NCBI GenBank assembly: GCA_047495785.1
Contig: JBLDXI010000010.1
Span: forward strand, 1 to 64,000
Source of the DNA: Lepidodermella squamata
Taxonomy: Eukaryota; Animalia; Gastrotricha
DNA: 64,000 nucleotides
Direction of reading: 5' to 3'
In this document: piece after piece, positions 18-30,200 of the stretch
Numbering within the stretch: the first letter of the stretch is position 1
Layout of the letters: the number at the start of each line of letters is the position of its first letter
Notes under the pieces: model-generated
The model's database searches: none
Told to the model about the DNA's origin: nothing
What the model saw: the letters and a program-made list of their open reading frames with translations, nothing else
Translations under genes and position numbers: made by a program

Positions 18-134
18 AGCTAAAATCATTATTTCTACTTTCATCATTATCTATCAATTTTCAAAATTCGCAGCAGAAATAAAAATATGGCTATCGGTAA
101 ATTCTCCCCGTTTTTAAAGTCTTCGTAATTTATT

Positions 135-404
135 ATGCATCAAACAACAGATATTCCGCGTGCTGTTTTACCGATCCTATTGCTGCTATCCCTGGTTACC
201 ATTTTAATCAGCTTTTTCGCTGTTATGGAAGTTCGCAATACTCAAGCCGAACTCCTTCACCTGCGGCAACTTGTCGAGTCTACTGAGCGGATGTTATATA
301 ATATAAATGATTTATTATTCCACTTAAACGGTGATTTATTTAGCCACATGGCTAATTGTTCGGTTGTCCCTACTTGCCGTAAATTAGCTATAAAGAAGAA
401 TTAG
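135..404 (+). CDS. Polinton small membrane protein, fold-back copy
   Basis: Identical 89 aa translation to 5866-6135. Confidence 0.5.
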   Translation: MHQTTDIPRAVLPILLLLSLVTILISFFAVMEVRNTQAELLHLRQLVESTERMLYNINDLLFHLNGDLFSHMANCSVVPTCRKLAIKKN

Positions 405-407
405 GTC

Positions 408-1616
408 ATGCCACGTAATAAACACAATGCGAGACGTCTAGCTGAAGGAGATGCTAAAATAAACCACAGGTCAGACTTGAAATCGTTTGTTTTGAGCTTC
501 TATAATGATCCGAAACATGTTGGATCATTTCAAGGCCTGCGCAGATTATACTCAACACTTAAAGCTACATTACCCTTAGAGCTGAGAAATTCCTTACTCA
601 TAAAAAACTAGCTGAGATTATGAGCCATGATCGAACATATTCATTATATAAACCACTAAGTGTAAGAAACCGGAAGCAATTCATGCAATATGAAGTTTAT
701 GCTAGAAGTGACCTCTTTCTAGGTGATCTTCTTGAAGTTCAAGATTCAAGCCAAGATAATGATGGAACCCGCTATTTACTTACAATCAAAGACTGTTTTA
801 CGCGTTATGCTTTCTGTATTCCCTTACTTAACAAAGAAGGAAATTACACTGCTGAGAAGATCAGTAATTTTTTGAGCAGCCTAACACCTGATTTGCGTTG
901 CCGCTCTTTCACTACAGATTCTGGCGGAGAATTTATCAACAAAGAAGCTAAAAAAATATTTAAAAAATTCAATGTTTATTATTACACTACAACCTCCATG
1001 TTCAAGTGTTCACCCATAGAAATTTCAACCGTTGGCTTCGTAGAACTATTTCGAGGCATCAAATTGCAAATCATACGCTGCGTTACATCGATTACTTACC
1101 TTTTTCTTAGCGTCTTACAATCAAATGAAAAATCGCAGCACTAGGGTTGCCCCGTTAGAATTATGGCTAGCTTCCCCAGAAGATCCTATAAATTTGGTTG
1201 CTTACAATAATGTTTTTGGAAAAAGAGATCAATTGATGCTTGAAAAGCGCAAGAATTTACTATACAAACCGACTTTTTCTGTCGGTGATTGTGTTAGAAT
1301 TAGTCGTGTAAAGGATTTATTTCACAAAGAAGGAGATTTCATTTTTACTGAAGAATATTTTTTTATCGACCGCATAGATACTTGTACCATCCCCGACAAG
1401 TATTATCTCCGTGATACTCTGAATAAGCGTATTCAAGGTAGTTTTTACGATTGGCAGCTTCAGATAGCACATCCGCAAGAAACATATTTAATAGAAAAAG
1501 TTCTGAAGCATCGCACTATAAATGGCAAGAAACAGGCTCTTGTGAAATGGCAAAACTGGCCGATTGAAGCCGCTAGTTGGATTGATGCAAACGAGATCAA
1601 AACCTTGGCCTCATGA
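408..1616 (+). pseudogene. Polinton integrase, fold-back copy with three apparent frameshifts
   Basis: Split into 67, 174 and 163 aa ORFs by single-base homopolymer deletions near 592, 1023 and 1101 relative to the intact copy. These are likely sequencing errors. Confidence 0.85.
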
Positions 1617-1816
1617 ATAGAGTTCCTACGACTCCACTCTTAGCTTTCCTACAAAAGCCATCTGTGCGTGTAGGGGCCTACATTTTTTTCCTTCTAATAA
1701 CCGTTTGGCTTATAGAAATTTCAAACTATTTATTCAAAACTAAGCTCCCCCCTTTTGGCAACAGCGCAATCCTTACTTTAGAAAAGATAGATAAGGATAA
1801 CATAACAAATGCTTAG
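1613..1816 (+). CDS. Polinton small membrane protein, fold-back copy
   Basis: Identical 67 aa translation to 4451-4654. Confidence 0.45.
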   Translation: MNRVPTTPLLAFLQKPSVRVGAYIFFLLITVWLIEISNYLFKTKLPPFGNSAILTLEKIDKDNITNA

Positions 1817-3028
1817 CATCCAGGAGGACTTCTTTATTTATTTACCCTCGAATGCCTCATATTCTCAACATCCGGCGAATACTCCGTCGGATTATCAAGT
1901 TGCTCTCCCTGTCCCAATTTGCGTACCCGATTGCCGTGCTTATGAAGTAGCCCTACTTGAGGCTACAATTCCTGTTAGGTGGAGTAGCATTGATCGTCAT
2001 ACAGTCTATGTGCTTGATTGTAACTGGCTGAAATCTTTTAAAAACGACATTATTGCTAATTATTTAACAAATCCTGGCTCTTTGCCACATCGGATGAAAA
2101 GTTTCAACAATCCATGGGAAACTGGCTTTATTAACAAAGTAAATTTCGGAGGTGAATATTTTGCGAATATAACCAAACTAATCGATCACTTTAATGAAAA
2201 AATATCCATCTCAAGTAGTAATGGCTCTATTTTTGCTCATTATGATTCAGTCAACAAAAAAACTAAAATTACCTGTAAATGGCCATATTCTATGTTTATA
2301 CCTTCAGATTCTGCTGGCCTCTTAGGTTTTGTGTCTCCAATAGAACAGAATACACCGTCTGGAGTTTTCATTTTTCCCAAGCCCCAAAAAATGACGAGCC
2401 AGAATTTAATGAAGTTTCCACTTTTGATATAAAGTCAACGTATGCCTTGGCATATGCGTGGAATATGAGCCACCAAATTCGTGAAAATCCACACATTTTA
2501 TTCAACTCAGTTGGGATTGTTAGGCTTTCTAGCAGACCAAAACTTAAGGAGGATGCAAATAATGAGACAGCGGCGGTAGAAAATCAAGAAGGCGTAAATT
2601 CAGCACAGCACTTTGATTTTTCTGAGCAAACAGTAATCACCAAAGATAATGATTTACCGCCTGCCTTTATTTATGCATGCTATGAAGAAAGTGCTACAGC
2701 TCAATACAACATTCAGTTGAATTATGGCAATAACTCACTGTTCATTTACTGCTCAGTTGCAGCGGATGTTTTTGTTGGAGATTGCCAAGCTAGCCTCCTT
2801 CGAATGATAACCTATTCTACGATGGCTTCTGCTACGGCAAATTCAGACTTGTCATCACATTTTACAGTGATTTATAACTCGGGCCTATATTTACCTTTAA
2901 AAGCCAATTTTATAGATTCAATTCAAGTTCAAATCCGCCGCGATAACGGGGCATTGATCGATTTTGTGGATGGTAGCAAAGTTGTATTGCTACTTCATAT
3001 TCGCCGAAAAACCGGAGCCTTATATTAA
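1809..3028 (+). CDS. Polinton minor capsid/penton (PX-like), fold-back copy with one apparent frameshift
   Basis: N-terminus FFIYLPSNAS..HPANTPSDYQVALP..YEVAL and C-terminus LFIYCS..VGD..ASLLR..YLPL..IDSIQVQIRRDNG..LLLHIRR. One G appears to be missing near 2381. Confidence 0.8.
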
Positions 3029-3073
3029 TATAAGTGGCTGAGTTCTAATTATTAATATTACCGAAGATGCCCC

Positions 3074-3197
3074 AGCGGAAATGGTCCAGGTTAGCACCCG
3101 CTCCAGCTCCATAGCCTGCTATCAGCGGGGAGGAGTGTTGGCGGAGAAAAAACTGCTGGTACTTGTCAACGTTTTGGTTAGAATAAGCTAGGGGCAT
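3074..3197 (-). CDS. 5' part of a Gly-rich Polinton core-like protein (PW-like), truncated at the fold-back junction
   Basis: Translates as MPLAYSNQNVDKYQQFFLRQHSSPLIAGYGAGAGANLDHFR directly downstream of the penton. IAGYG fits the adenoviral protease consensus (M/I/L)xGxG. Confidence 0.55.
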
Positions 3198-3235
3198 CTT
3201 CGGTAATATTAATAATTAGAACTCAGCCACTTATA

Positions 3236-4458
3236 TTAATATAAGGCTCCGGTTTTTCGGCGAATATGAAGTAGCAATACAACTTTGCTACCATCCACAA
3301 AATCGATCAATGCCCCGTTATCGCGGCGGATTTGAACTTGAATTGAATCTATAAAATTGGCTTTTAAAGGTAAATATAGGCCCGAGTTATAAATCACTGT
3401 AAAATGTGATGACAAGTCTGAATTTGCCGTAGCAGAAGCCATCGTAGAATAGGTTATCATTCGAAGGAGGCTAGCTTGGCAATCTCCAACAAAAACATCC
3501 GCTGCAACTGAGCAGTAAATGAACAGTGAGTTATTGCCATAATTCAACTGAATGTTGTATTGAGCTGTAGCACTTTCTTCATAGCATGCATAAATAAAGG
3601 CAGGCGGTAAATCATTATCTTTGGTGATTACTGTTTGCTCAGAAAAATCAAAGTGCTGTGCTGAATTTACGCCTTCTTGATTTTCTACCGCCGCTGTCTC
3701 ATTATTTGCATCCTCCTTAAGTTTTTGGTCTGCTAGAAAGCCTAACAATCCCAACTGAGTTGAATAAAATGTGTGGATTTTCACGAATTTGGTGGCTCAT
3801 ATTCCACGCATATGCCAAGGCATACGTTGACTTTATATCAAAAGTGGAAACTTCATTAAATTCTGGCTCGTCATTTTTTGGGGCCCTTGGGAAAAATGAA
3901 AACTCCAGACGGTGTATTCTGTTCTATTGGAGACACAAAACCTAAGAGGCCAGCAGAATCTGAAGGTATAAACATAGAATATGGCCATTTACAGGTAATT
4001 TTAGTTTTTTTGTTGACTGAATCATAATGAGCAAAAATAGAGCCATTACTACTTGAGATGGATATTTTTTCATTAAAGTGATCGATTAGTTTGGTTATAT
4101 TCGCAAAATATTCACCTCCGAAATTTACTTTGTTAATAAAGCCAGTTTCCCATGGATTGTTGAAACTTTTCATCCGATGTGGCAAAGAGCCAGGATTTGT
4201 TAAATAATTAGCAATAATGTCGTTTTTAAAAGATTTCAGCCAGTTACAATCAAGCACATAGACTGTATGACGATCAATGCTACTCCACCTAACAGGAATT
4301 GTAGCCTCAAGTAGGGCTACTTCATAAGCACGGCAATCGGGTACGCAAATTGGGACAGGGAGAGCAACTTGATAATCCGACGGAGTATTCGCCGGATGTT
4401 GAGAATATGAGGCATTCGAGGGTAAATAAATAAAGAAGTCCTCCTGGATGCTAAGCAT
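3236..4458 (-). CDS. Polinton minor capsid/penton (PX-like) with two apparent frameshifts
   Basis: Same motifs as the + copy, with an extra base near 3884 and another near 3722. The consensus of both arms gives one ~406 aa ORF. Confidence 0.8.
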
Positions 4459-4654
4459 TTGTTATGTTATCCTTATCTATCTTTTCTAAAGTAAGGATTG
4501 CGCTGTTGCCAAAAGGGGGGAGCTTAGTTTTGAATAAATAGTTTGAAATTTCTATAAGCCAAACGGTTATTAGAAGGAAAAAAATGTAGGCCCCTACACG
4601 CACAGATGGCTTTTGTAGGAAAGCTAAGAGTGGAGTCGTAGGAACTCTATTCAT
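4451..4654 (-). CDS. Small single-pass membrane protein of the Polinton
   Basis: 67 aa with hydrophobic VGAYIFFLLITVWLI. Its ATG overlaps the integrase stop (ATGA) and its end overlaps the penton start. Confidence 0.5.
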   Translation of the reverse strand: MNRVPTTPLLAFLQKPSVRVGAYIFFLLITVWLIEISNYLFKTKLPPFGNSAILTLEKIDKDNITNA

Positions 4655-5862
4655 GAGGCCAAGGTTTTGATCTCGTTTGCATCAATCCAACTAGCGGCTT
4701 CAATCGGCCAGTTTTGCCATTTCACAAGAGCCTGTTTCTTGCCATTTATAGTGCGATGCTTCAGAACTTTTTCTATTAAATATGTTTCTTGCGGATGTGC
4801 TATCTGAAGCTGCCAATCGTAAAAACTACCTTGAATACGCTTATTCAGAGTATCACGGAGATAATACTTGTCGGGGATGGTACAAGTATCTATGCGGTCG
4901 ATAAAAAAATATTCTTCAGTAAAAATGAAATCTCCTTCTTTGTGAAATAAATCCTTTACACGACTAATTCTAACACAATCACCGACAGAAAAAGTCGGTT
5001 TGTATAGTAAATTCTTGCGCTTTTCAAGCATCAATTGATCTCTTTTTCCAAAAACATTATTGTAAGCAACCAAATTTATAGGATCTTCTGGGGAAGCTAG
5101 CCATAATTCTAACGGGGCAACCCTAGTGCTGCGATTTTTCATTTGATTGTAAGACGCTAAGAAAAAAGGTAAGTAATCGATGTAACGCAGCGTATGATTT
5201 GCAATTTGATGCCTCGAAATAGTTCTACGAAGCCAACGGTTGAAAATTTCTATGGGTGAACACTTGAACATGGAGGTTGTAGTGTAATAATAAACATTGA
5301 ATTTTTTAAATATTTTTTTAGCTTCTTTGTTGATAAATTCTCCGCCAGAATCTGTAGTGAAAGAGCGGCAACGCAAATCAGGTGTTAGGCTGCTCAAAAA
5401 ATTACTGATCTTCTCAGCAGTGTAATTTCCTTCTTTGTTAAGTAAGGGAATACAGAAAGCATAACGCGTAAAACAGTCTTTGATTGTAAGTAAATAGCGG
5501 GTTCCATCATTATCTTGGCTTGAATCTTGAACTTCAAGAAGATCACCTAGAAAGAGGTCACTTCTAGCATAAACTTCATATTGCATGAATTGCTTCCGGT
5601 TTCTTACACTTAGTGGTTTATATAATGAATATGTTCGATCATGGCTCATAATCTCAGCTAGTTTTTTATGAGTAAGGGAATTTCTCAGCTCTAAGGGTAA
5701 TGTAGCTTTAAGTGTTGAGTATAATCTGCGCAGGCCTTGAAATGATCCAACATGTTTCGGATCATTATAGAAGCTCAAAACAAACGATTTCAAGTCTGAC
5801 CTGTGGTTTATTTTAGCATCTCCTTCAGCTAGACGTCTCGCATTGTGTTTATTACGTGGCAT
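4651..5862 (-). CDS. Polinton/Maverick retroviral-like (rve) DDE integrase with C-terminal chromodomain
   Basis: N-terminal FYNDPKHVGSF. Catalytic D (LGDLL), D (TTDSGGEF) and E (PIEIFNRWLR). Chromodomain YLIEKVLKHR..ALVKWQNWP..ASWI. Intact 403 aa. Confidence 0.93.
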   Translation of the reverse strand: MPRNKHNARRLAEGDAKINHRSDLKSFVLSFYNDPKHVGSFQGLRRLYSTLKATLPLELRNSLTHKKLAEIMSHDRTYSLYKPLSVRNRKQFMQYEVYARSDLFLGDLLEVQDSSQDNDGTRYLLTIKDCFTRYAFCIPLLNKEGNYTAEKISNFLSSLTPDLRCRSFTTDSGGEFINKEAKKIFKKFNVYYYTTTSMFKCSPIEIFNRWLRRTISRHQIANHTLRYIDYLPFFLASYNQMKNRSTRVAPLELWLASPEDPINLVAYNNVFGKRDQLMLEKRKNLLYKPTFSVGDCVRISRVKDLFHKEGDFIFTEEYFFIDRIDTCTIPDKYYLRDTLNKRIQGSFYDWQLQIAHPQETYLIEKVLKHRTINGKKQALVKWQNWPIEAASWIDANEIKTLAS

Positions 5863-5865
5863 GAC

Positions 5866-6135
5866 CTAATTCTTCTTTATAGCTAATTTACGGCAAGTAG
5901 GGACAACCGAACAATTAGCCATGTGGCTAAATAAATCACCGTTTAAGTGGAATAATAAATCATTTATATTATATAACATCCGCTCAGTAGACTCGACAAG
6001 TTGCCGCAGGTGAAGGAGTTCGGCTTGAGTATTGCGAACTTCCATAACAGCGAAAAAGCTGATTAAAATGGTAACCAGGGATAGCAGCAATAGGATCGGT
6101 AAAACAGCACGCGGAATATCTGTTGTTTGATGCAT
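5866..6135 (-). CDS. Small membrane-anchored helical protein of the Polinton
   Basis: 89 aa with an N-terminal hydrophobic run (AVLPILLLLSLVTILISFFAVM) followed by a heptad-like helix. It ends 3 bp before the integrase ATG. Confidence 0.55.
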   Translation of the reverse strand: MHQTTDIPRAVLPILLLLSLVTILISFFAVMEVRNTQAELLHLRQLVESTERMLYNINDLLFHLNGDLFSHMANCSVVPTCRKLAIKKN

Positions 6136-6299
6136 AATAAATTACGAAGACTTTAAAAACGGGGAAATTTACCGATAGCCATATTTTTATTTCTGCTGCG
6201 AATTTTGAAAATTGATAGATAATGATGAAAGTAGAAATAATGATTTTAGCTTAAAAAAAGACGGCACGCGATTAATCTTCCCTCATTCATTAAATCATT

Positions 6300-7438
6300 T
6301 TATTGTTGTTTGATATACAGAAAAAAAGGCGCCAATTTAACAAATGCTATTTTTATAAGAGATAACGAAAAACAGCCGCTCATAATCATTTTTCCAGTGT
6401 GAAACAGTGTGGCAGATACATTTAACTTTGGTTCATTTTCATTAGTGCTGACTTTGGAGAAAACACGTATACGCAACCCAGGAAAAAATTCTGGTTGGTA
6501 AACGCATATTTTAGGAAATTGAAAAGCTAGCAGGCTAAGATTGACAGTTTTATGTAAATCGTAGAACAATACTATATTAGTAATTATTGGGTCACGGATT
6601 ATCAACCGTCGATTAACAATTTTTCTGAGTGTAGCTTGAAGAACTCCAAAAGCAGTAACACAATTCGAGGCTGTTTTGGTACCACTACAAATTATAGCTC
6701 CGGATGAAAATAATAAAAACGTCGCGTTAAAAGCAGGTACTTTATAGAACAAAGCACTCGACATTTTTTTTGGGTTATATTTTGCACAAGGTAAAATTAG
6801 GGCTAGACTATCTAAATTAAATAGAAAATTTGACCTTGATTTAGCCATAATATTTGAAATAGAGTAATCAATATCATATTGTATATTATTTACTTCCATA
6901 TTTAATGGTGGGGATTTCAATAGAAAAAAAGGTTCAGTGCTAGATTGTAGCTTTAAATCAACAGGATAGGATATAGTCAAATTTATGATCGTGGTCGACT
7001 GTGATGCGGCTGATTGAAGGCTTGTAACATACTTGATTTCAGCTGTTTCTGTTTGAACTTTGCGATAGGTTGAGGGCAAATCATGACCAAAAAAGAGGCG
7101 ACAGAATCTTGCTTTCGTGACTCATGATTGGTAATTGGAACAGCTGGTTTATTTTTCGCCTTGCATGGCGTTTTCGCCGATTTAGCAACTGATTTCTTCT
7201 CAGTACCTATGACTTTTTTCTGAATTTTATGTTTAGCATTGCGTTTCGGTTGATTACGAACCGCAGTTTTTGCTAATCTAGAGGCTGATGTTTGTTCAAC
7301 AGGTTCCTTGGTAAACGTACTCGTATTCGGTTCATTCAGGTTTATTGGTACGAAATCATTGTTAGAAAAAAACAATGGAGAAGCCGGAGATGAATTGAAG
7401 AAAGCTTCCATAAATTCAGTAAGAAGAATAATATTCAA
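6300..7438 (-). CDS. Divergent TATA-binding protein (TBP)-like gene inside the Polinton, probably one ORF with a Lys-rich N-terminal extension
   Basis: Both TBP repeats are present: SNIMA..NLDSLAL..AKYNPKK..LLFSSGAIICSG and TNIV..NLSLLA..YQPEFFPGL..TLFHTGKMIMSG. One extra T in the T6 run at ~7089-7094 would fuse the 151 aa and 259 aa ORFs. No introns. Confidence 0.88.
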
Positions 7439-7579
7439 AGTTCTTGCGTTTGAAATGAAAAATGATCGAATGACGGAAGCCGGCCGCGGTGATTGGTTGG
7501 AGTTGCTGAGCCCCAGAACCTTCTGATTAGGAATGAATAAATAACAAAGGCATTATATAAATAAAATAAACTGACCAAA

Positions 7580-8386
7580 TTAGGTCGAAGAGCTGTTGTT
7601 GAAAGGTAAGACGGTAGCGACAGGTTGTAGTGCGATGGAGCGTTGCATGATGCCCGGCCATTTACTATTCGCACCTTCCTGCTGACCATTAAGAACATCG
7701 ATGACTGATGCCCATGGAATTTTCTGAGCGTGTTGATAGGGTGGAGGTACGACGTTCTGCATTTCTACTGAGACCCTACGACCTGCCCGAAGTAAAAGGT
7801 AGAATATGTGCCGCAGGTTTACGCTGACACCATTAAAGTTTTTTAACAAATCGTAAAATAAATGTTGGATGTAGATATATCGGCCTTCGGTGTAGGTAGG
7901 GTGTGCCGTTAGGCCATACCAGAAACTTTCTTCCAGGCCAGACACAATAATAGGGTTAGGGCTATCGTCGAGGCAATCATCCAAAAGGTAATCACTTTCA
8001 GTAAAAATAATTGAGTGACAAATGGACGACCATAAATCATCCTGGCGAACAAGGAGCGTGGTAGTATCATTTAGGATGCTCTTCCATAAATCATGCCCAA
8101 CGATGGAAGCACAGGTAGCTAAATTATATTCGGCAAAATGTTGAAAATTCGTGCCATCGTGGGTTGATGGGAAGAGACGAGCAACGGCTCTTTTGTAGCC
8201 GAGATAAACATGATCGATAGTAATATGTTGGCCTTTCGAGTTGGCAATCAAATCGAATATGGCGACTTCAGCGAATGTAATGCGTCCAGAGAGGGTATTT
8301 AGTGATATATTTAATGATTTCGGAGGAAAAAGTAAATCTTCTCGGTAGAAAATCGCTTCATAAGATTCATCATAGCCAATAATCAT
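7580..8386 (-). CDS. Polinton orphan protein (268 aa) with an internal ~35 aa duplication
   Basis: Long ORF in AT-rich element DNA, co-oriented with the other element genes. No family recognised. Confidence 0.65.
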   Translation of the reverse strand: MIIGYDESYEAIFYREDLLFPPKSLNISLNTLSGRITFAEVAIFDLIANSKGQHITIDHVYLGYKRAVARLFPSTHDGTNFQHFAEYNLATCASIVGHDLWKSILNDTTTLLVRQDDLWSSICHSIIFTESDYLLDDCLDDSPNPIIVSGLEESFWYGLTAHPTYTEGRYIYIQHLFYDLLKNFNGVSVNLRHIFYLLLRAGRRVSVEMQNVVPPPYQHAQKIPWASVIDVLNGQQEGANSKWPGIMQRSIALQPVATVLPFNNSSST

Positions 8387-8481
8387 AGCAACTTATTTGA
8401 CCTTGCTATCCCTACCTTAATCTTTGCTTTTATTCGATTTTCCTTGAGTAAAAAAATGTTTCTTATATTTTTTAGATTACA

Positions 8482-8710
8482 GTTAAGTTGGATTGATAGG
8501 AGAAAGTAAAGTTTATTTACAAAACAAGTTAATGGACATATCAGGAAAGAAAGGAGTATTTATAAATGCTAATGGCCAAAGTAAAAAATATTTATTATAT
8601 TTTAGATTAAAGTTAAGGGGGATTGATAGGAGAAAGTAATGTTTATTTACAAAAAAGGTTAATGGAAAGTAAGGTGTATTTATATAAGCTAATGGACAAA
8701 GCAGGAAAAA
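8482..8710. repeat. Imperfect ~120-130 bp direct repeat (2 copies) in the element's non-coding region
   Basis: GGATTGATAGGAGAAAGTAA..GTTTATTTACAAAA..GTTAATGGA..GTATTTATA..GCTAATGG occurs twice. Confidence 0.75.
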
Positions 8711-8839
8711 AGATGAGCTAGCTTGAGTTCTTAGATTACTGTATCTAATCAAGTATCTTTTTGGAAACTAAGAAAATTGATGGAAGCAGAAGACATGTAA
8801 GTTTGGTTCTTTTTTAAAAAATCTTGAATAAATTCTGTT

Positions 8840-9055
8840 ATGTTTAGTCGTGAACGCTTATATCAAGCACTGCTAAGCATTGACCATCTGCAACGAGCAA
8901 TGACAGCAGCTATAAACGAAATGTTGAACACACAATTGGAGGTTGAACAATTGATCAATGATGCATCACGATTTATGATAGCAACTCGAGCAAGAGATCA
9001 GGCATGCAGCCTAGATTGTGGTGATTGGAATTGTAATTACTGTTACAAAGATTGA
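8840..9055 (+). CDS. Small Polinton ORF, helical with a C-terminal Cys cluster
   Basis: 71 aa from an ATG, ending CSLDCGDWNCNYCYKD, followed by AATAAA near 9066. Confidence 0.45.
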   Translation: MFSRERLYQALLSIDHLQRAMTAAINEMLNTQLEVEQLINDASRFMIATRARDQACSLDCGDWNCNYCYKD

Positions 9056-9219
9056 AAAATTAAAAATAAATTATCATGTGTGCATTTTTTATATTACAAA
9101 TTAATTCCCAGAAAGAATGCAAAAGCATGACTCATAATAGTTTTAGAAAAAAAGTATGCCCGCTGTATATTTTATCATAAACATTGCGTACATTTATGGG
9201 GCAACGGATAAAACGCACT

Positions 9220-9421
9220 TATATATTTATGTGAAACGGTTATAGTAAAAATGACCGTAGTGCTATTACTGATACAACGCTCGTATATTTATGCCAAATG
9301 GCTATAGTAAAAATCGCCGTACTGCCATTACTGATCCCAAATTGCGTATATTTATACCAAACGGCTATAGTAAAAATCGCCGTACTGCCATTACTGATCC
9401 AAAGTTCCCATCCTTACTACT
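9220..9421. repeat. Polinton terminal region with ~3 tandem 62-63 bp repeats, ending in ACTACT
   Basis: G(C/T)TATAGTAAAAAT..CCGTA..ATTACTGAT recurs at ~9239, 9301 and 9364. The terminus ACTACT at 9416-9421 is the reverse complement of AGTAGT. Confidence 0.85.
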
Positions 9422-10985
9422 CACTGCTAACGGGTGAAGTAACTACGGGAGGGTTCTCGGCCGAGGTTTGAGGACTTGTAGTTCTCGACCCTGGATTCGC
9501 GCCAGAATTTGTTGTTGAGGTGGACGTCGTTGTTTCAGACTTTGGCTGCTCCACCGAGTTCATGCGCCGCTTTCTCGCCGCCTCATCGCTAGGTGGTACG
9601 TGGAGTAAATGCGCCGATGCCATTTCCTGCTTACTAATATTGCTAAGGGCTTGAGCGATATGTTCGCTGTTGAAACCACTCGGGTGTAAGTGCAGGTGAG
9701 TCGGGTCGTGGTATTCTGACAGCCGCTTTCGAGGAGCGGACGGCTGCCGCGATAACGGGCTTGTCAAATGTTGATGCATCGCATGAGGTCTCATGTGCGC
9801 TAGAACAGCCGCAATAGCCGCTAGGCCGTCGCTTCCAATCATCGGGGTCGGCATTAAGGCGGCCTTCGGCGATTCCCGGAAACACCTCACGCCCTCCGTG
9901 AACAAATCCGACAACACGTGCCATTCGTTAGAATTAGCCCGCATTTCATACTCGAGGAATCGATAACCATTTCCGATGGTAACTTGCAAATCCAGCCCGT
10001 TTGACGATGTCCCAGAATGCGAGACAGTATCAGCAGCCATTTTTCGAACCGCGGCCGTCACGGTTGGGTAGACATTGCTCGACGCTAGCGGGTATTGCAC
10101 CATAGTCCGAAGCTCGTAAGACGGTGTTGATGACGCTTCTTTATCAGCAGGTTGGCGTTGAACGACTAAACTCGCATCGACATGCACAACTCGCCCCCTC
10201 AGGCTTTGATCGCGCTTGTAACGAACTTCAAACGGCAGACACCGGCGTAGGGTGTCTAGAATTTCGTTGACATAAGCCGGGAAATCATTATTGTTATTGC
10301 TAGACGACGAGCTGGGCGGCGTCGGAAAAGCTGTGGCGGAGTTGGCAGCTAACGCGGCGGCGATTGAAAGTGGCGAAACGCCTTCGACCATCGCAGAATC
10401 CGACGCCCGGCCGCCGGCTGCAGCGGCCAGGGTCAGCGCAGCCGCGACAGCTGAATTCGCTGCGGACGCATCTTCAACGTACAAACTTGGCGGAGATTTG
10501 CTATTCATACTTAGAGATGTAGTCGTAGTTAACGGCCGGTGTTGCTGTTGCTGCATCTGCCCGGGTAGAGAGAACACCCTGGGAAACAACCCACCCCCAG
10601 GTCCATTGATTACCTTAGACTGTTGCGATTGAAATAAGCTAATCGGACCATTCGAGGTTGGCCCATTTTGAGATTTTATAACATTGTGCTGATCGTGATT
10701 TAAATGGATAGGGGTTGGTTGAAGTACGCCGTTAGAATGGCCATTTGTAGACGCATTTCCAGTACTGTTCATCATTTTTATGCCATTTTGAGTAGGCTGA
10801 TTAGGGCCAGTGTGGCTGCGTTTCATGTGGCGCGCTTGCTCCAAAACAAGTTCAATCCGATCTGAGCCTTCGTAGTTGACACAACCACGGCAAACCGGCT
10901 CGGAAAAGTCGTGAATCATCGCCCACGGCATGCGAGGTAAATCGCACAGAAAGCACTGCTGGCGTTGTGAGCGATTAGCCATCAT
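9417..10985 (-). CDS. IRF2BP: IRF2BP family transcriptional co-repressor, C-terminally truncated by the Polinton insertion
   Basis: N-terminal C4 zinc finger [30 protein letters not shown] and middle domain ([19 protein letters not shown]). The C-terminal C3HC4 RING is absent and the stop codon lies in element sequence. Confidence 0.92.
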
Positions 10986-14925: not shown

Positions 14926-15882
14926 AATGATAACACAGCCTATAAAATTTAGCATAAAAGAAGAGTGGTTAGTCATTAGAGAACATCACGCCATTGCAAT
15001 GCAATGGGGAAGATGAGCAATGGGTAACAATAAATATCTTTATTTAGCCCCGATAGAACCGTCCTCTCACCTCATGCATCTGATCGACGAATGGAACGAT
15101 CTCTCTCGCAAAGTTGTATCGCAACGTGTCAACAGAAGTGCATAACAGAAATAAACACTCTAGGCCTGCCATGAAATCGCTTTAACCAAGGCTGAACATT
15201 GTTTTGTAAATAAAAAAGCCGTTTTGCCACTGTCAAGTACCACTTTCGGTTTTGGTTTTAAGGAATGCGAAGGCTGATCATCACTCAAAAACAGTTTAAT
15301 CGTGGAAGTTGAATATATTGGATCCAGTTCCCAGCAGATGCGATAGTAGAAAGGGGGAAATTAACGATACGAATAGTAAGCGAAGCGTGTCTTCATAAGA
15401 CAAACTTCAAATTTCGCGCTTGTTGCTAAGAAAATTACAAACGTTGTAACAAAAAAAATTATTTATAAAAAACAAAAATGTACAAATCTGTATATTTTCA
15501 GTTACAAGGTCAAAGAGTGGCGCGCAAAATAAAAAAGTAACGAGAGGTAACGGAGGCCCTTTTCGCACCTGATTGAATGGACCGCTGAAGTCTGTCTGAG
15601 TTACCGCATTGATACCGATTGATCGACGAGTTATCTGCTGTCTCCTAAATTAATATGTAATTGAGCCAAAGCTTGGAATTTGAATATGTCTTTAAATTTA
15701 CAGTACTGGTTATCCGTTATCCTTAAATTAGAACAACAAATGTTAAGTTTAGAGTTGTGATTGTTGATTGCTAGATCGCGAACTTATCTGTAACCGTATC
15801 GAGTTTCTGGTTAAAGGGGCAGACTTTGATCAATCCCTATCATAGTGCAATCCACGTCGAAGTCACGAGCGCACTTCTCATA

Positions 15883-15978
15883 CCGTAGTTACCGAAATAC
15901 AAGCCTAGGCGGCACCTCTTTGTCGGCACTTTGATGTTCTTTGTAGTGCCGCCTAGGCTTGTATTTCGGTAACTACGG
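15883..15978. mobile_element. 96 bp MITE with ~33 bp TIRs and TA target duplication (pogo/Tc2-type ends)
   Basis: TA|CCGTAGTTACCGAAATACAAGCCTAGGCGGCAC...GTGCCGCCTAGGCTTGTATTTCGGTAACTACGG|TA. Confidence 0.8.
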
Positions 15979-16518
15979 TATATTAGTGATTGTATTATGT
16001 TCTATTGTTCTGTGCGCGCGCGCGCATCATGTTACGCGATCAGGCGCACATGCTCGCTCCGCTCGCATGGTAATGGTGCTTGTGACTTCTCCGTGGATTG
16101 CTTATTTAGTAAAACCGGACTTTGATTGCCCTTGCACTTTCATCGACTATTTGAGTCTGGATTCAATGCTCTACATATTTGAACTCCGCTGTGACCCTCA
16201 AAGCCTTAATTTTTAAAACTGGTGGCCTGAAATAATATCAAAGTTTCACGTTTCGAATGTTGTATTGATGGGGGGTCATATCTGGTAGAGGTAAGTGGTG
16301 TTCAAGAACTAAGAATGCGGATTCAATCGTTCACCGTTTACTTCCGTGTGAGTTACTTCGTCCCGTATGATTTTGAAGTCAATTAGCCAATTTGAAATTT
16401 TGCGAAATCGTGACGGAGCGTGCCCTCTTTGCTGAATGAGAGAAACCCTTTATTGTGTTAGTTATAGGCTATTGTATTGTATTATAAGTGTCACACGTTA
16501 GAACAGCGTTTCACTGCA

Positions 16519-27200: not shown

Positions 27201-30200
27201 GCTTTTCGTCAAGTCACTAGAGCCGGATAATCTGGCTCATATGTTGCCGCAGATCCTAGTTTCCCTGCTACCTCTCGCCAAAATGTTTCAGGGCAATGTC
27301 GACTCGATTTTCGAGTATTTGTTCAGTTTCAAAGGCGCTGTTATCCAGAAGTCGGCCGAAGAGATTTCTTACATCATCGTTGATATCGTTGAATTTGCCC
27401 GGCATGTCAAAGCTGTCCCGGATATAACTGCGATTAAACGAAGCCCGAAAAACTTTGCCATCGCGTGCTCTCGCGGTTGCGCGAATGAAAGCAGTGAAGT
27501 TCGTCTGCTGGCTTTGAGTCGATTGAAAAGCTATTTCGCGGAGAATCAAACCGTTTTGGTCAACAGCATGAGCTCGAACACGCTGGAGCAAGAATGGGGG
27601 CCGGTTTTAGGCCAGCTATTGAGGTGTTGCCACGATACTGATATCAACGTTCGATTAGCAGCGACTGAAGTTTTCGGCCTATTCGGCGCCGTAAATCCGT
27701 CTCGTATTCCGGCTTTGCAAAGCGGTGCTACGCATTTGACCAATTCTAACCTATCACTATCGCTGAATGAAGTAACAACAGATCCTGGTTTCGCGTACAG
27801 TTTGATTATGGACGTTTGTCGCGTTTTTCTGGCTGCTGATGACACGAAGGTTCAGGATGCTGCTGCTTATGCCCTGCAGCAGCTACTTTCAACTTTTGGG
27901 GTCAATGAAGCGCTTTTGACGATGAGTCAGCTGCAAACTAATAGCAGTTTTGGAATTCGTTTATGGAACAAATTTGCAACTTCGACCCAACAGCTACTGA
28001 AACCATACCTGAAAACCAAGTAAGGATTTTCTCAGAAAGAAAAATTGTAGCGCCACAGAAAATTTTGTATAATCTAAGAAAATGTGTAAAATCTAGGGTC
28101 ATTTCCTTCGGCCTGAATGCTAATTTCATGAAAATGTCAATCAAGCTTGAAATTTGGGAACTGGGGAAAAATACAATCCGTGTCATATCAGGAAGGGCCA
28201 GCACTCTTAAATCTGAAACTACAATTTGCTGTATAAAAAAAGCGTAATTATAAATGAAAAAAGTCCACTTTTTTGTAACGACAAATGTTACGTGACACGT
28301 TACCGGTTTTTCCTTCGATGTATGGCTTATTTCCACTGCCAAAAAACGTAAAAAATTGCCGTATCATTCGTTACGGTTTATTTGTAACTACATTTTTTCC
28401 CGTCGCACACGCCGCACTTCTTGCTAAGCGTGGTCGAAATTTGTATCGAAATCATACAAGTCAGCGAGATGAATGAATTCATGTGACTTGGACTTGAGGA
28501 TGTTCAAATGATCACCAAATCCAAGTCCAAGTCACATGAATTCATTCATCTCGCTGACTTGTATGATTTCGATACAAATTGCGACCACGCTTAGCAAGAA
28601 GTGCGGCGTTTGCGAAGGATATATGTTGCACAAAAACAGAACAAGAAGAAATGTGGATAAAATGAGTATAATCAAGAATATAATTGGATGAGCAGGATTT
28701 TCAACAGCTCATATTCAAGTATAAGTATAAGGCACTCATTATTAAGGCATTCAATTTGGCATACAATTTGGACTAGTTTGAGATATATTTAGGGTATGCT
28801 TTTGAGCAAGATTATATGAGCAATTTCGATAACTCTCAAGAGCATCATTCATAGGATCACCGGTGTATGCATCAGCACACATGAAAGCTATGTAGAAAAA
28901 CAAGTCAAATCATCGTCATCAAGATCATCATCAATAGGTATTGTCATAAGATCGCATCGGCTTGATTAGTTTTCGCGAGCACAGAACCTTTTGAGTTGTG
29001 GCGATGAAGGTTGTACAAAGCATTTCTTTGAGCAGAACCAAAAACTACAGATCGAGCACTGGCTCCAACCGGCTTGGCCGGCCTCAAAGAGTCTAAAGCA
29101 TAAGCGGCACCGATTTCGGTCGACGAGGATTGGCGTAAGAGGCGTTTTGTTTTCGACCAGTTCGCTATCAGCTTCAGCATTCTATAATCGGAAAAAAATG
29201 ATGAGAAAAAATGTTTAATTTCGTTTTCATCATTATTATTATGCGACAATACTTACCGAACGTGAAGAGCTGCTCGCTTCGTTATTCGGACTTTGGCGCA
29301 GTTTGTGCATGCGTTTGACTCGCATGTTAGTGGAAATCGACGTCATTAACCATCCCTTTATGAAAGGAAGAAAACACATGTAAAAATGTATTACACGGAA
29401 TATCGGCATTTTTTGGAAGCCATTGTCAATACGGACAAAATTGGGTTAATCTTTTTTCATCTTGCCAAACATCTTTTTCTATCTAACCGAAAATTTCCAT
29501 CTTTATTCATCTAACCAGCATTTTCTCGCGTGAAAAATACGAAAAATCTTTTTTCATCTTGCCAATGTCTTTTTGTATCTTGCCAACATCTTTTCCCATC
29601 TTGCCACGTGTTTCAATAGTTTTTTTGCGGCCACGCGTCTCGCAACGAAATCTTCAATAGCCTACCACCCAAGTGGGCAGTACGCTTAGGGTAATCGAGA
29701 AAATCAATCTCACGATTCGGTTCCTCAAGCCTAGCCCATCCGTTGATTTAGGCCTGTTCTTTAGGAACTTCGAATCGACCAAGGATAGGACGGCCGCCCG
29801 GTACCGCACGACGCAGTACTTCACAATTGCGGCCGGCATTCGATTGAAAAGTTCCAAAATGTTAGCCCTCTCAGCCGGTGTTACCTGAAATTATAAAATG
29901 ATGAGAAATTGTATTATTAAAATTGAAAGCTCACATAAACGGTGAAATGAATAAAAATGTGTTATCAGTATAATAACTGCGCATGGGCCACGGTAAGAAC
30001 TAAGTCTCTGGCCTCAGAGCAACTCGGGAACCGTCGAAATTTGGCACGCGGTGAATTCCAAGTTAATACTCCGAATCGCAGTTATCAGCAAAAACAGCAG
30101 TCAAATGCCAAGTTTCTTCGTGCGAAAAATTGACTCAATTTTTGCGAATTTTTATTAGCTGGATCACCGACGACAACAGCATCTCCAACACGATACTCAA

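Follow-up and report, generated by a model that had tools for sequence, protein, structure and literature searches.

Near one end of a contig from the gastrotrich Lepidodermella squamata (assembly GCA_047495785.1, contig JBLDXI010000010.1, positions 1 to 64,000 of the forward strand; these 64,000 nucleotides are the window referred to throughout) lies a virus-like element present in many copies, likely a Polinton, that carries a TBP-like gene. The gene occupies positions 6300-6899 on the minus strand and encodes 199 amino acids with two TBP repeats, as seen by Pfam, by a structural model with a fold search and by a residue map. The Pfam family PF00352 matches the open reading frame (ORF) in two stretches (E 1.1e-24), and AlphaFold2 predicts a TBP saddle with a predicted local distance difference test score (pLDDT) of 93.8, from a 31-row TBP alignment that itself favours the TBP fold. 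The model reaches a TM-score of 0.80 against the human TBP core (1cdw). The fold search gave 44 PDB matches that reach E 0.001, and the listed ones are TBP chains of 24-27% identity, a range that holds alike for human, plant, yeast and archaeal TBP. The product has the two-repeat saddle of the TBP family, and its second repeat contains an additional loop, about 10 residues long.

A preliminary description of this DNA had placed the gene at 6300-7438. The TBP gene is real, but that region spans two frames and the TBP ORF takes up only 6300-6899. Its frame is open from 7121 and its first ATG lies at 6899, which leaves 74 open codons upstream (6900-7121, minus strand; p = 0.016 by chance at the local base make-up). 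These overlap the end of ORF142 (6983-7411, minus strand), a Ser/Thr/Lys-rich frame of 142 codons with no credible match in Pfam, PHROG or NCBIfam. No indel is listed where the two frames split, either in run X1 or in the RNA contig of run X2; an assembly error is thus not the cause. Other parts of the description fared well, e.g. the two repeats, which the paired Pfam stretches and the saddle model bear out, and the lack of introns, as an RNA contig covers the TBP ORF without a gap. The gene does have the element end (9421) on one side and the integrase (4651-5862) on the other. It shares its strand with the integrase and a penton-like gene, although not with every gene of the element, as one at 8780-9055 runs the opposite way.

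Sequencing depth ties the TBP gene to the element. All eight X1 contigs listed over 3097-9329 have depths of 1631-1909 and no other letters, those over TBP having 1631-1678, whereas two host-flank contigs have depths of 79 and 104. The element is thus about 16-24 times deeper than its flanks, a ratio that is not a strict copy number, as only two other flanks are listed and part of the depth may thus be free DNA. A single X1 contig spans 5303-6333 and links the integrase to the 3' end of TBP. Within the TBP ORF no difference of at least 1% is listed in X1, although small variants may go unseen where its contigs break, near 6500 and 6940. A further contig, of depth 54, matches the penton-like gene, the integrase and TBP codons of about 7-20 (39 bases at the 5' end) in the same order, and nine of its ten listed integrase differences fall at third codon positions. 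By its sequence this contig seems to be a diverged sister element in which the TBP gene is kept. The G+C content at third codon positions is 0.24 for TBP, 0.32-0.42 for four other element ORFs and 0.42-0.53 for five host ORFs. Depth, contiguity, the sister element, composition and RNA cover all support the proposal of a divergent TBP gene that belongs to the element. The element also seems to have been mobile recently, since its depth is high, its variants are few and it is inserted inside a host coding exon.

The TBP gene is transcribed. Runs X2 and X3 were taken as RNA from their splice joints and a poly-T end; the run records do not label any run as RNA. Three GT-AG introns of 51-53 nucleotides are removed in X2 or X3, and a loose poly-T end in X2 lies before 7326, with an AATAAA at 7346, 20 bases away. 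Element genes are spliced and polyadenylated, which implies transcription by the RNA polymerase II (Pol II) of the host. One X2 contig (7336-5862) covers the whole TBP ORF and lacks the intron at 6120-6172. We read it as cover only, which gives no start, level or proof of a single transcript. It may merge transcripts, because the 437 bases 5' of the TBP ATG hold six upstream ATGs and fold no better than shuffles (z -0.39). Neither X2 nor X3 covers the integrase region 4400-5725 and X3 does not cover the TBP ORF, gaps that we do not use as evidence; X6 has matches of 22-32 bases only.

The element and its host locus

The integrase (4651-5862, minus strand) is 403 amino acids long and of the Polinton type, with rve and Chromo domains in Pfam and an acidic triad (D107, D171 and E205) that is invariant in all six rows compared. 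Next to it, at 3236-4458 on the minus strand, lies a gene in pieces that resembles the penton, or minor capsid, protein (Atlas look-alikes at 0.96-0.97, with the Sputnik V18/19 minor capsid cluster at rank 13). This assignment is of moderate strength, as the Atlas recognition value of 2070 is below 2300 and there is no Pfam match. The gene is broken near 3720 and 3880, breaks that are probably assembly errors because a high-depth X1 contig differs from the window at both. Between the integrase and TBP there is a small two-exon gene of about 87 codons with a hydrophobic N-terminus (5866-6182, minus strand, ATG at 6182), whose intron at 6120-6172 is joined in both X2 and X3. An AATAAA at 5812 lies within the first integrase codons, and the X3 contig of this small upstream gene stops at 5795; contigs of this kind cannot prove a transcript end.

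Beyond ORF142 lies ORF268 (7580-8386, minus strand), for which no family or relative was found and whose predicted fold is unusable (pLDDT 33.8). Its RNA lacks a 53-nucleotide intron (7523-7575) that starts four bases past the stop codon, and the poly(A) site at 7326 falls inside ORF142, downstream of the ORF142 ATG. Between ORF268 and a divergent plus-strand gene are two 84-nucleotide repeats (8453-8536 and 8583-8666, in a region of 8453-8700), each followed by an ordinary TATA box (8557 and 8677). Repeats had been described at 8482-8710; two do exist, at these other coordinates. The plus-strand gene (8780-9055) has two exons and 74 codons ending in a Cys cluster; its intron (8797-8847) is joined in X3, with exon lengths in frame. 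The word TAATGG occurs four times in the repeat region (8530-8690) and twice in the terminal repeat (9330-9393), the host rate being 0.31 per kb, and GATTGAT occurs at 8491 and 8621. Both resemble homeodomain sites.

The element ends at 9421, after a stretch of 63-nucleotide tandem repeats (9222-9421). This end is fixed from both sides, because X1 contigs depart from the window after 9421 and 9425, continuing in other flanks, and the X2 contig that carries the host gene departs before 9422. A second sequence joins at 9300 in both X1 and X2. From this entry and these exits there is likely a terminal inverted repeat at 9300-9421, whose length of about 122 bp falls within the 100-1500 bp range for Polintons. 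On the minus strand the terminus reads AGTAGT; a start of AG or AGT is a Polinton mark. Polintons also make target site duplications of 5-8 bp, for which the window contains one of the two flanks. In another X1 contig the likeness is confined to roughly the final 32 bases of the terminus (9390-9421), after which it diverges; it may represent a second family of elements or a derivative that has this end in common. The one match to the terminus in viral contigs was rejected as an 18-base chance match.

At its other side the visible part of the element, 6.3 kb in all, stops near 3078-3097 at a fold-back, where 18-3073 repeats 3191-6251 in inverted orientation with no mismatches and seven gap columns. 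This 3-kb duplication at the contig end is probably an artefact, because the joint is not listed in X1. An X1 contig of low depth (19-26) does touch 3073-3096, and a snap-back copy is the alternative to an artefact. Among the window ORFs, with 6.3 kb of the element in view, no pPolB, packaging ATPase, maturation protease or major capsid protein was recognised. The earlier assignment to the Polintons/Mavericks stands in so far as the integrase, the penton-like gene and the terminal repeat agree with it, and the four other core genes would lie outside the window. The element is likely a Polinton.

The host, an animal with short introns, has had one of its genes interrupted. The element sits inside the coding sequence of an IRF2BP gene (9417-10985, minus strand; Pfam PF11261 and PF25457), which it cuts at 9421/9422, and the remaining ORF ends at 522 amino acids. 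IRF2BP proteins carry a C-terminal RING finger, which is not in the window ORF. Run X2 carries an uninterrupted IRF2BP, on a contig that leaves the window exactly at 9422, and the insertion is possibly rare or heterozygous. Host genes other than IRF2BP were named by eye. Elsewhere in the host sequence are near-perfect hairpins resembling miniature inverted-repeat transposable elements, at 28400-28618 (97-bp arms) and 15880-15981 (36-bp arms).

Residues and relatives of the element TBP

The residue map sets the element TBP beside a plant-type reference and 12 canonical, 24 short divergent and 7 archaeal rows, with the yeast numbering and the TBP surfaces placed by what we take to be the accepted scheme. 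The surface assignment is backed in part by Ravarani et al. (2020, PMC7221094; here and below, statements on cited sources refer to the accessible part of each text). The element TBP is identical to the reference at 48 of 184 positions (26%), compared with 66-73% for six canonical rows. Residues F64, F139, F166, N16, N108, V110, L62, P140, T60, S66, R145, K170 and E137 are kept, so that both Asn and most phosphate contacts survive, and the second stirrup is nearly canonical. The changes are M46 for the first intercalating Phe, M18 for Val, T164 for Leu, A68 for Lys, F177 for Lys and Q135 for the first stirrup Glu. The preliminary description had read these sites correctly: three of the four intercalating Phe are present (F64, F139 and F166), the first is Met, and YQPE replaces YEPE, which retains one of the two stirrup Glu for TFIIB (E137). 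The canonical basic patch on helix 2 is largely gone, with two Lys or Arg compared with four to six in all five canonical rows displayed. In viral TBPs the DNA face is kept and the TFIIB and regulator faces have diverged (Ravarani et al. 2020, PMC7221094). Judged by its residues, the element TBP shows this viral pattern.

Our tree has 37 rows, among them 30 selected protein matches, P0002, three loci and the query; other matches were left out. Short divergent TBPs surround the element TBP without firm support, and it falls outside the canonical eukaryotic clade (98/93). A joint clade of the element TBP and the canonical eukaryotic TBPs is rejected by the approximately unbiased test (p-AU 0.029), a value to be read with the long branch in mind and with the group having been fixed after the tree was seen. 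FastTree leaves the element TBP in an open fork.

Close relatives are scarce. Among 1.84 billion representatives the best identities are 25-40%, none of 1196 matches falls below 1e-30, and the one match that a search for close relatives gave among 192 candidates is 30% identical. Scans of viral contigs with TBP, the integrase, the integrase alignment and a piece of the penton-like gene gave no relative. Scans with the TBP alignment gave 4 viral and 434 metagenome loci; in the 84 loci made up of the 4 viral and the best 80 of the metagenome ones, neither the integrase nor any of six other element proteins was found at E 0.01. Two loci on small contigs dense in genes, L007 (169-729) and L009 (662-1207), encode short divergent TBPs whose second repeat likewise has an extra loop. 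The pieces of these that were examined hold no integrase, and the neighbouring ORFs have no assigned family.

Possible roles of the element TBP

We suggest, as the likeliest explanation, that the TBP is the element's own promoter factor, a reading that, from the sequence, we hold to be evenly balanced between true and false. The protein would bind AT-rich, TATA-like promoters of the element, bring in host Pol II and escape the regulators of host TBP. The residue changes suggest that it could still bind and bend AT-rich DNA, and that its reading may be looser or altered at the first-repeat end, where Met replaces Phe, and at Thr164, a Leu in cellular TBP. Loss of the helix-2 patch may free it from Mot1/BTAF1, TAF1 and TFIIA-type control. 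With a half-kept stirrup (Q135 and E137) it might bind host TFIIB weakly or need an element partner. By analogy with herpesviruses and giant viruses, the genes near the terminus, with their ordinary TATA boxes, would be switched on first by host TBP, and the element TBP would then activate the integrase and capsid genes. A fuller version is a two-step programme that an active Polinton lineage of animals would run on host Pol II with a minimal kit, in which the terminal ordinary-TATA genes come first and the 199-residue TBP, its reading end altered, then reads a private box to express virion genes; we offer it tentatively and consider it rather unlikely. The candidate box would be a WAAGCT-like word 55-95 bases before four element genes.

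Several observations weigh against the promoter-factor reading. The best shared 5-mer, AAGCT, lies 55-95 bases before four of six element genes, and 2045 of 5000 shuffles had a 5-mer shared at least as widely; for the best shared 6-mer the figure was higher (3215 of 5000). This comparison used six upstream regions, most late genes being absent from the window, and the start used for the gene labelled TM was misplaced by a single base. A private promoter box thus finds no support in the window. Host TBP could read the TATAAA, an ordinary one, that precedes the ATG of the integrase by 19 bases. Met46 is unique among the 44 compared rows, 41 of which have Phe, and the element TBP has the longest branch in the tree (2.61); given both, its DNA binding may be impaired. 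The TBP match in the sister element is limited to 39 bases. Finally, no TFIIB-like gene was recognised among the visible element ORFs (6.3 kb), and most TBP-bearing viruses encode TFIIB (PMC7221094).

Could the protein instead be a decoy or repressor, which occupies host or element TATA boxes without a working initiation complex and so damps host defence genes or keeps latency? We think this possible but unlikely. The loss of one of the two TFIIB-contact Glu and most of the helix-2 patch from a protein whose DNA face is mostly kept would suit a decoy, as would the want of a shared private promoter word. However, E137, F139, P140 and K170 are retained, the first Glu also varies in other short divergent TBPs (3 of 24 rows), and viral TBPs with such a pattern are read as working factors (PMC7221094). 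A non-transcriptional role, in which the protein bends AT-rich terminal repeats for protein-primed replication, integration or packaging, is in our opinion quite improbable. The terminal repeats do carry TATA-like words (9220, 9349 and 9356), TBP lies near the integrase and the partner surfaces are eroded, yet the second stirrup is still nearly canonical. We know of no precedent for a TBP as a terminus-binding DNA bender.

Two further explanations concern the origin of the gene. It may be old captured cargo of little present use that was spread by a recent burst of copying, in which case near-identical copies would stay intact without selection; the very long branch and the lack of any close relative fit such a history. 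Against this, structural and DNA-contact residues have survived at 26% overall identity, a matching piece of TBP is kept in the diverged sister element and RNA covers the gene, and we consider idle cargo very unlikely. The preliminary description had named as its own alternative a recent single-copy retrocopy of host TBP, to which we add TRF2, dropped into the element. TBP is intronless and three neighbouring element genes have introns, as a retrocopy would predict. This explanation nevertheless fails: the depth of TBP equals that of the rest of the element, identity is about 25% to cellular TBPs and 24-27% to human, plant, yeast and archaeal TBP alike, and the protein is placed outside the canonical clade by the tree and by the test above, with the reservations given there. 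Phe is also kept where TRF2/TBPL1 has Trp, on what we take to be the right mapping of that position. A retrocopy is largely refuted and we give it almost no credence.

Comparison with known systems

The element shares with Polintons, Mavericks and adintoviruses an rve-chromo integrase, a penton-like gene, a terminal repeat of about 122 bp and several insertion sites (10.1101/2023.08.22.554363). It differs in having a TBP, which is not in the Polinton core set; the accessible text of that source has no occurrence of 'TBP', and neither does that of 10.1101/2025.04.19.649669. TBPs are present in mirusvirus-like algal elements, which are not Polintons (PMC10675990). A precedent comes from Starrett et al. 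(2021, PMC8502044), whose legend to Fig. 5 labels a TBP gene in Polinton-like (MELD) viruses with an adintovirus-like PolB, a label also present in their preprint (10.1101/697771). The likeness is that a Polinton-like virus of middle size, or an element related to it, has a TBP-like gene. That legend entry stands in a section on non-animal hosts, whereas the present element is transcribed, of high depth and in an animal, and the accessible text holds no residue or function analysis of the MELD-virus TBP. The claim of novelty is thus partly forestalled. A search of the literature, with subscription papers and Repbase outside it, found no functional study of a Polinton TBP, and a TBP in a Polinton-like element has barely been reported before.

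Polinton virions have not been observed to date, according to the accessible text of 10.1101/2023.08.22.554363. How Polinton genes are controlled and awakened is an open question, and a TBP of their own offers a direct handle on it, namely a single small protein, the limited set of residues altered in it and a few promoters. The element is a good test case, since it looks recently mobile and is transcribed. If a TBP with altered specificity does ignore host regulators, it would also inform the design of orthogonal transcription systems.

Nucleocytoplasmic large DNA viruses (NCLDV) often encode their own polymerase, whereas the genes of the present element are spliced and polyadenylated, which points to host Pol II. 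The TBP-TFIIB pairs of NCLDV resemble the present case in a conserved DNA face with diverged stirrup and N-lobe regulator faces (PMC7221094). These viruses mostly encode their own TFIIB (PMC7221094), and neither a TFIIB nor such a polymerase is seen among the visible ORFs of the element. With cellular TBP, TRF2/TBPL1 and TRF3/TBPL2 the protein shares the two-repeat saddle, both Asn, three Phe and the YxPExFPGL loop. It departs from cellular TBPs in its identity of about 25%, in the first Phe and the first stirrup Glu, which have become Met and Gln, and in the eroded helix-2 patch and the repeat-2 loop.

The late TBP mimics of beta- and gammaherpesviruses, ORF24 of KSHV (Kaposi's sarcoma-associated herpesvirus), BcRF1 of EBV (Epstein-Barr virus) and UL87 of HCMV (human cytomegalovirus), combine a TBP fold with host Pol II in a nuclear DNA virus and serve as our working model. 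These mimics are large proteins that bind Pol II through a domain of its own and have five partners (PMC7498053), and they use a TATT box, whereas the element ORF encodes a bare saddle of 199 residues with no separate domain for the C-terminal domain of Pol II, although a longer product may exist. The element TBP is also much closer to cellular TBP, with a TM-score of 0.80 compared with 0.37 for a UL87 model. If the two-step programme is true, a virus the size of a transposon would have arrived independently at a counterpart of the late switch of herpesviruses.
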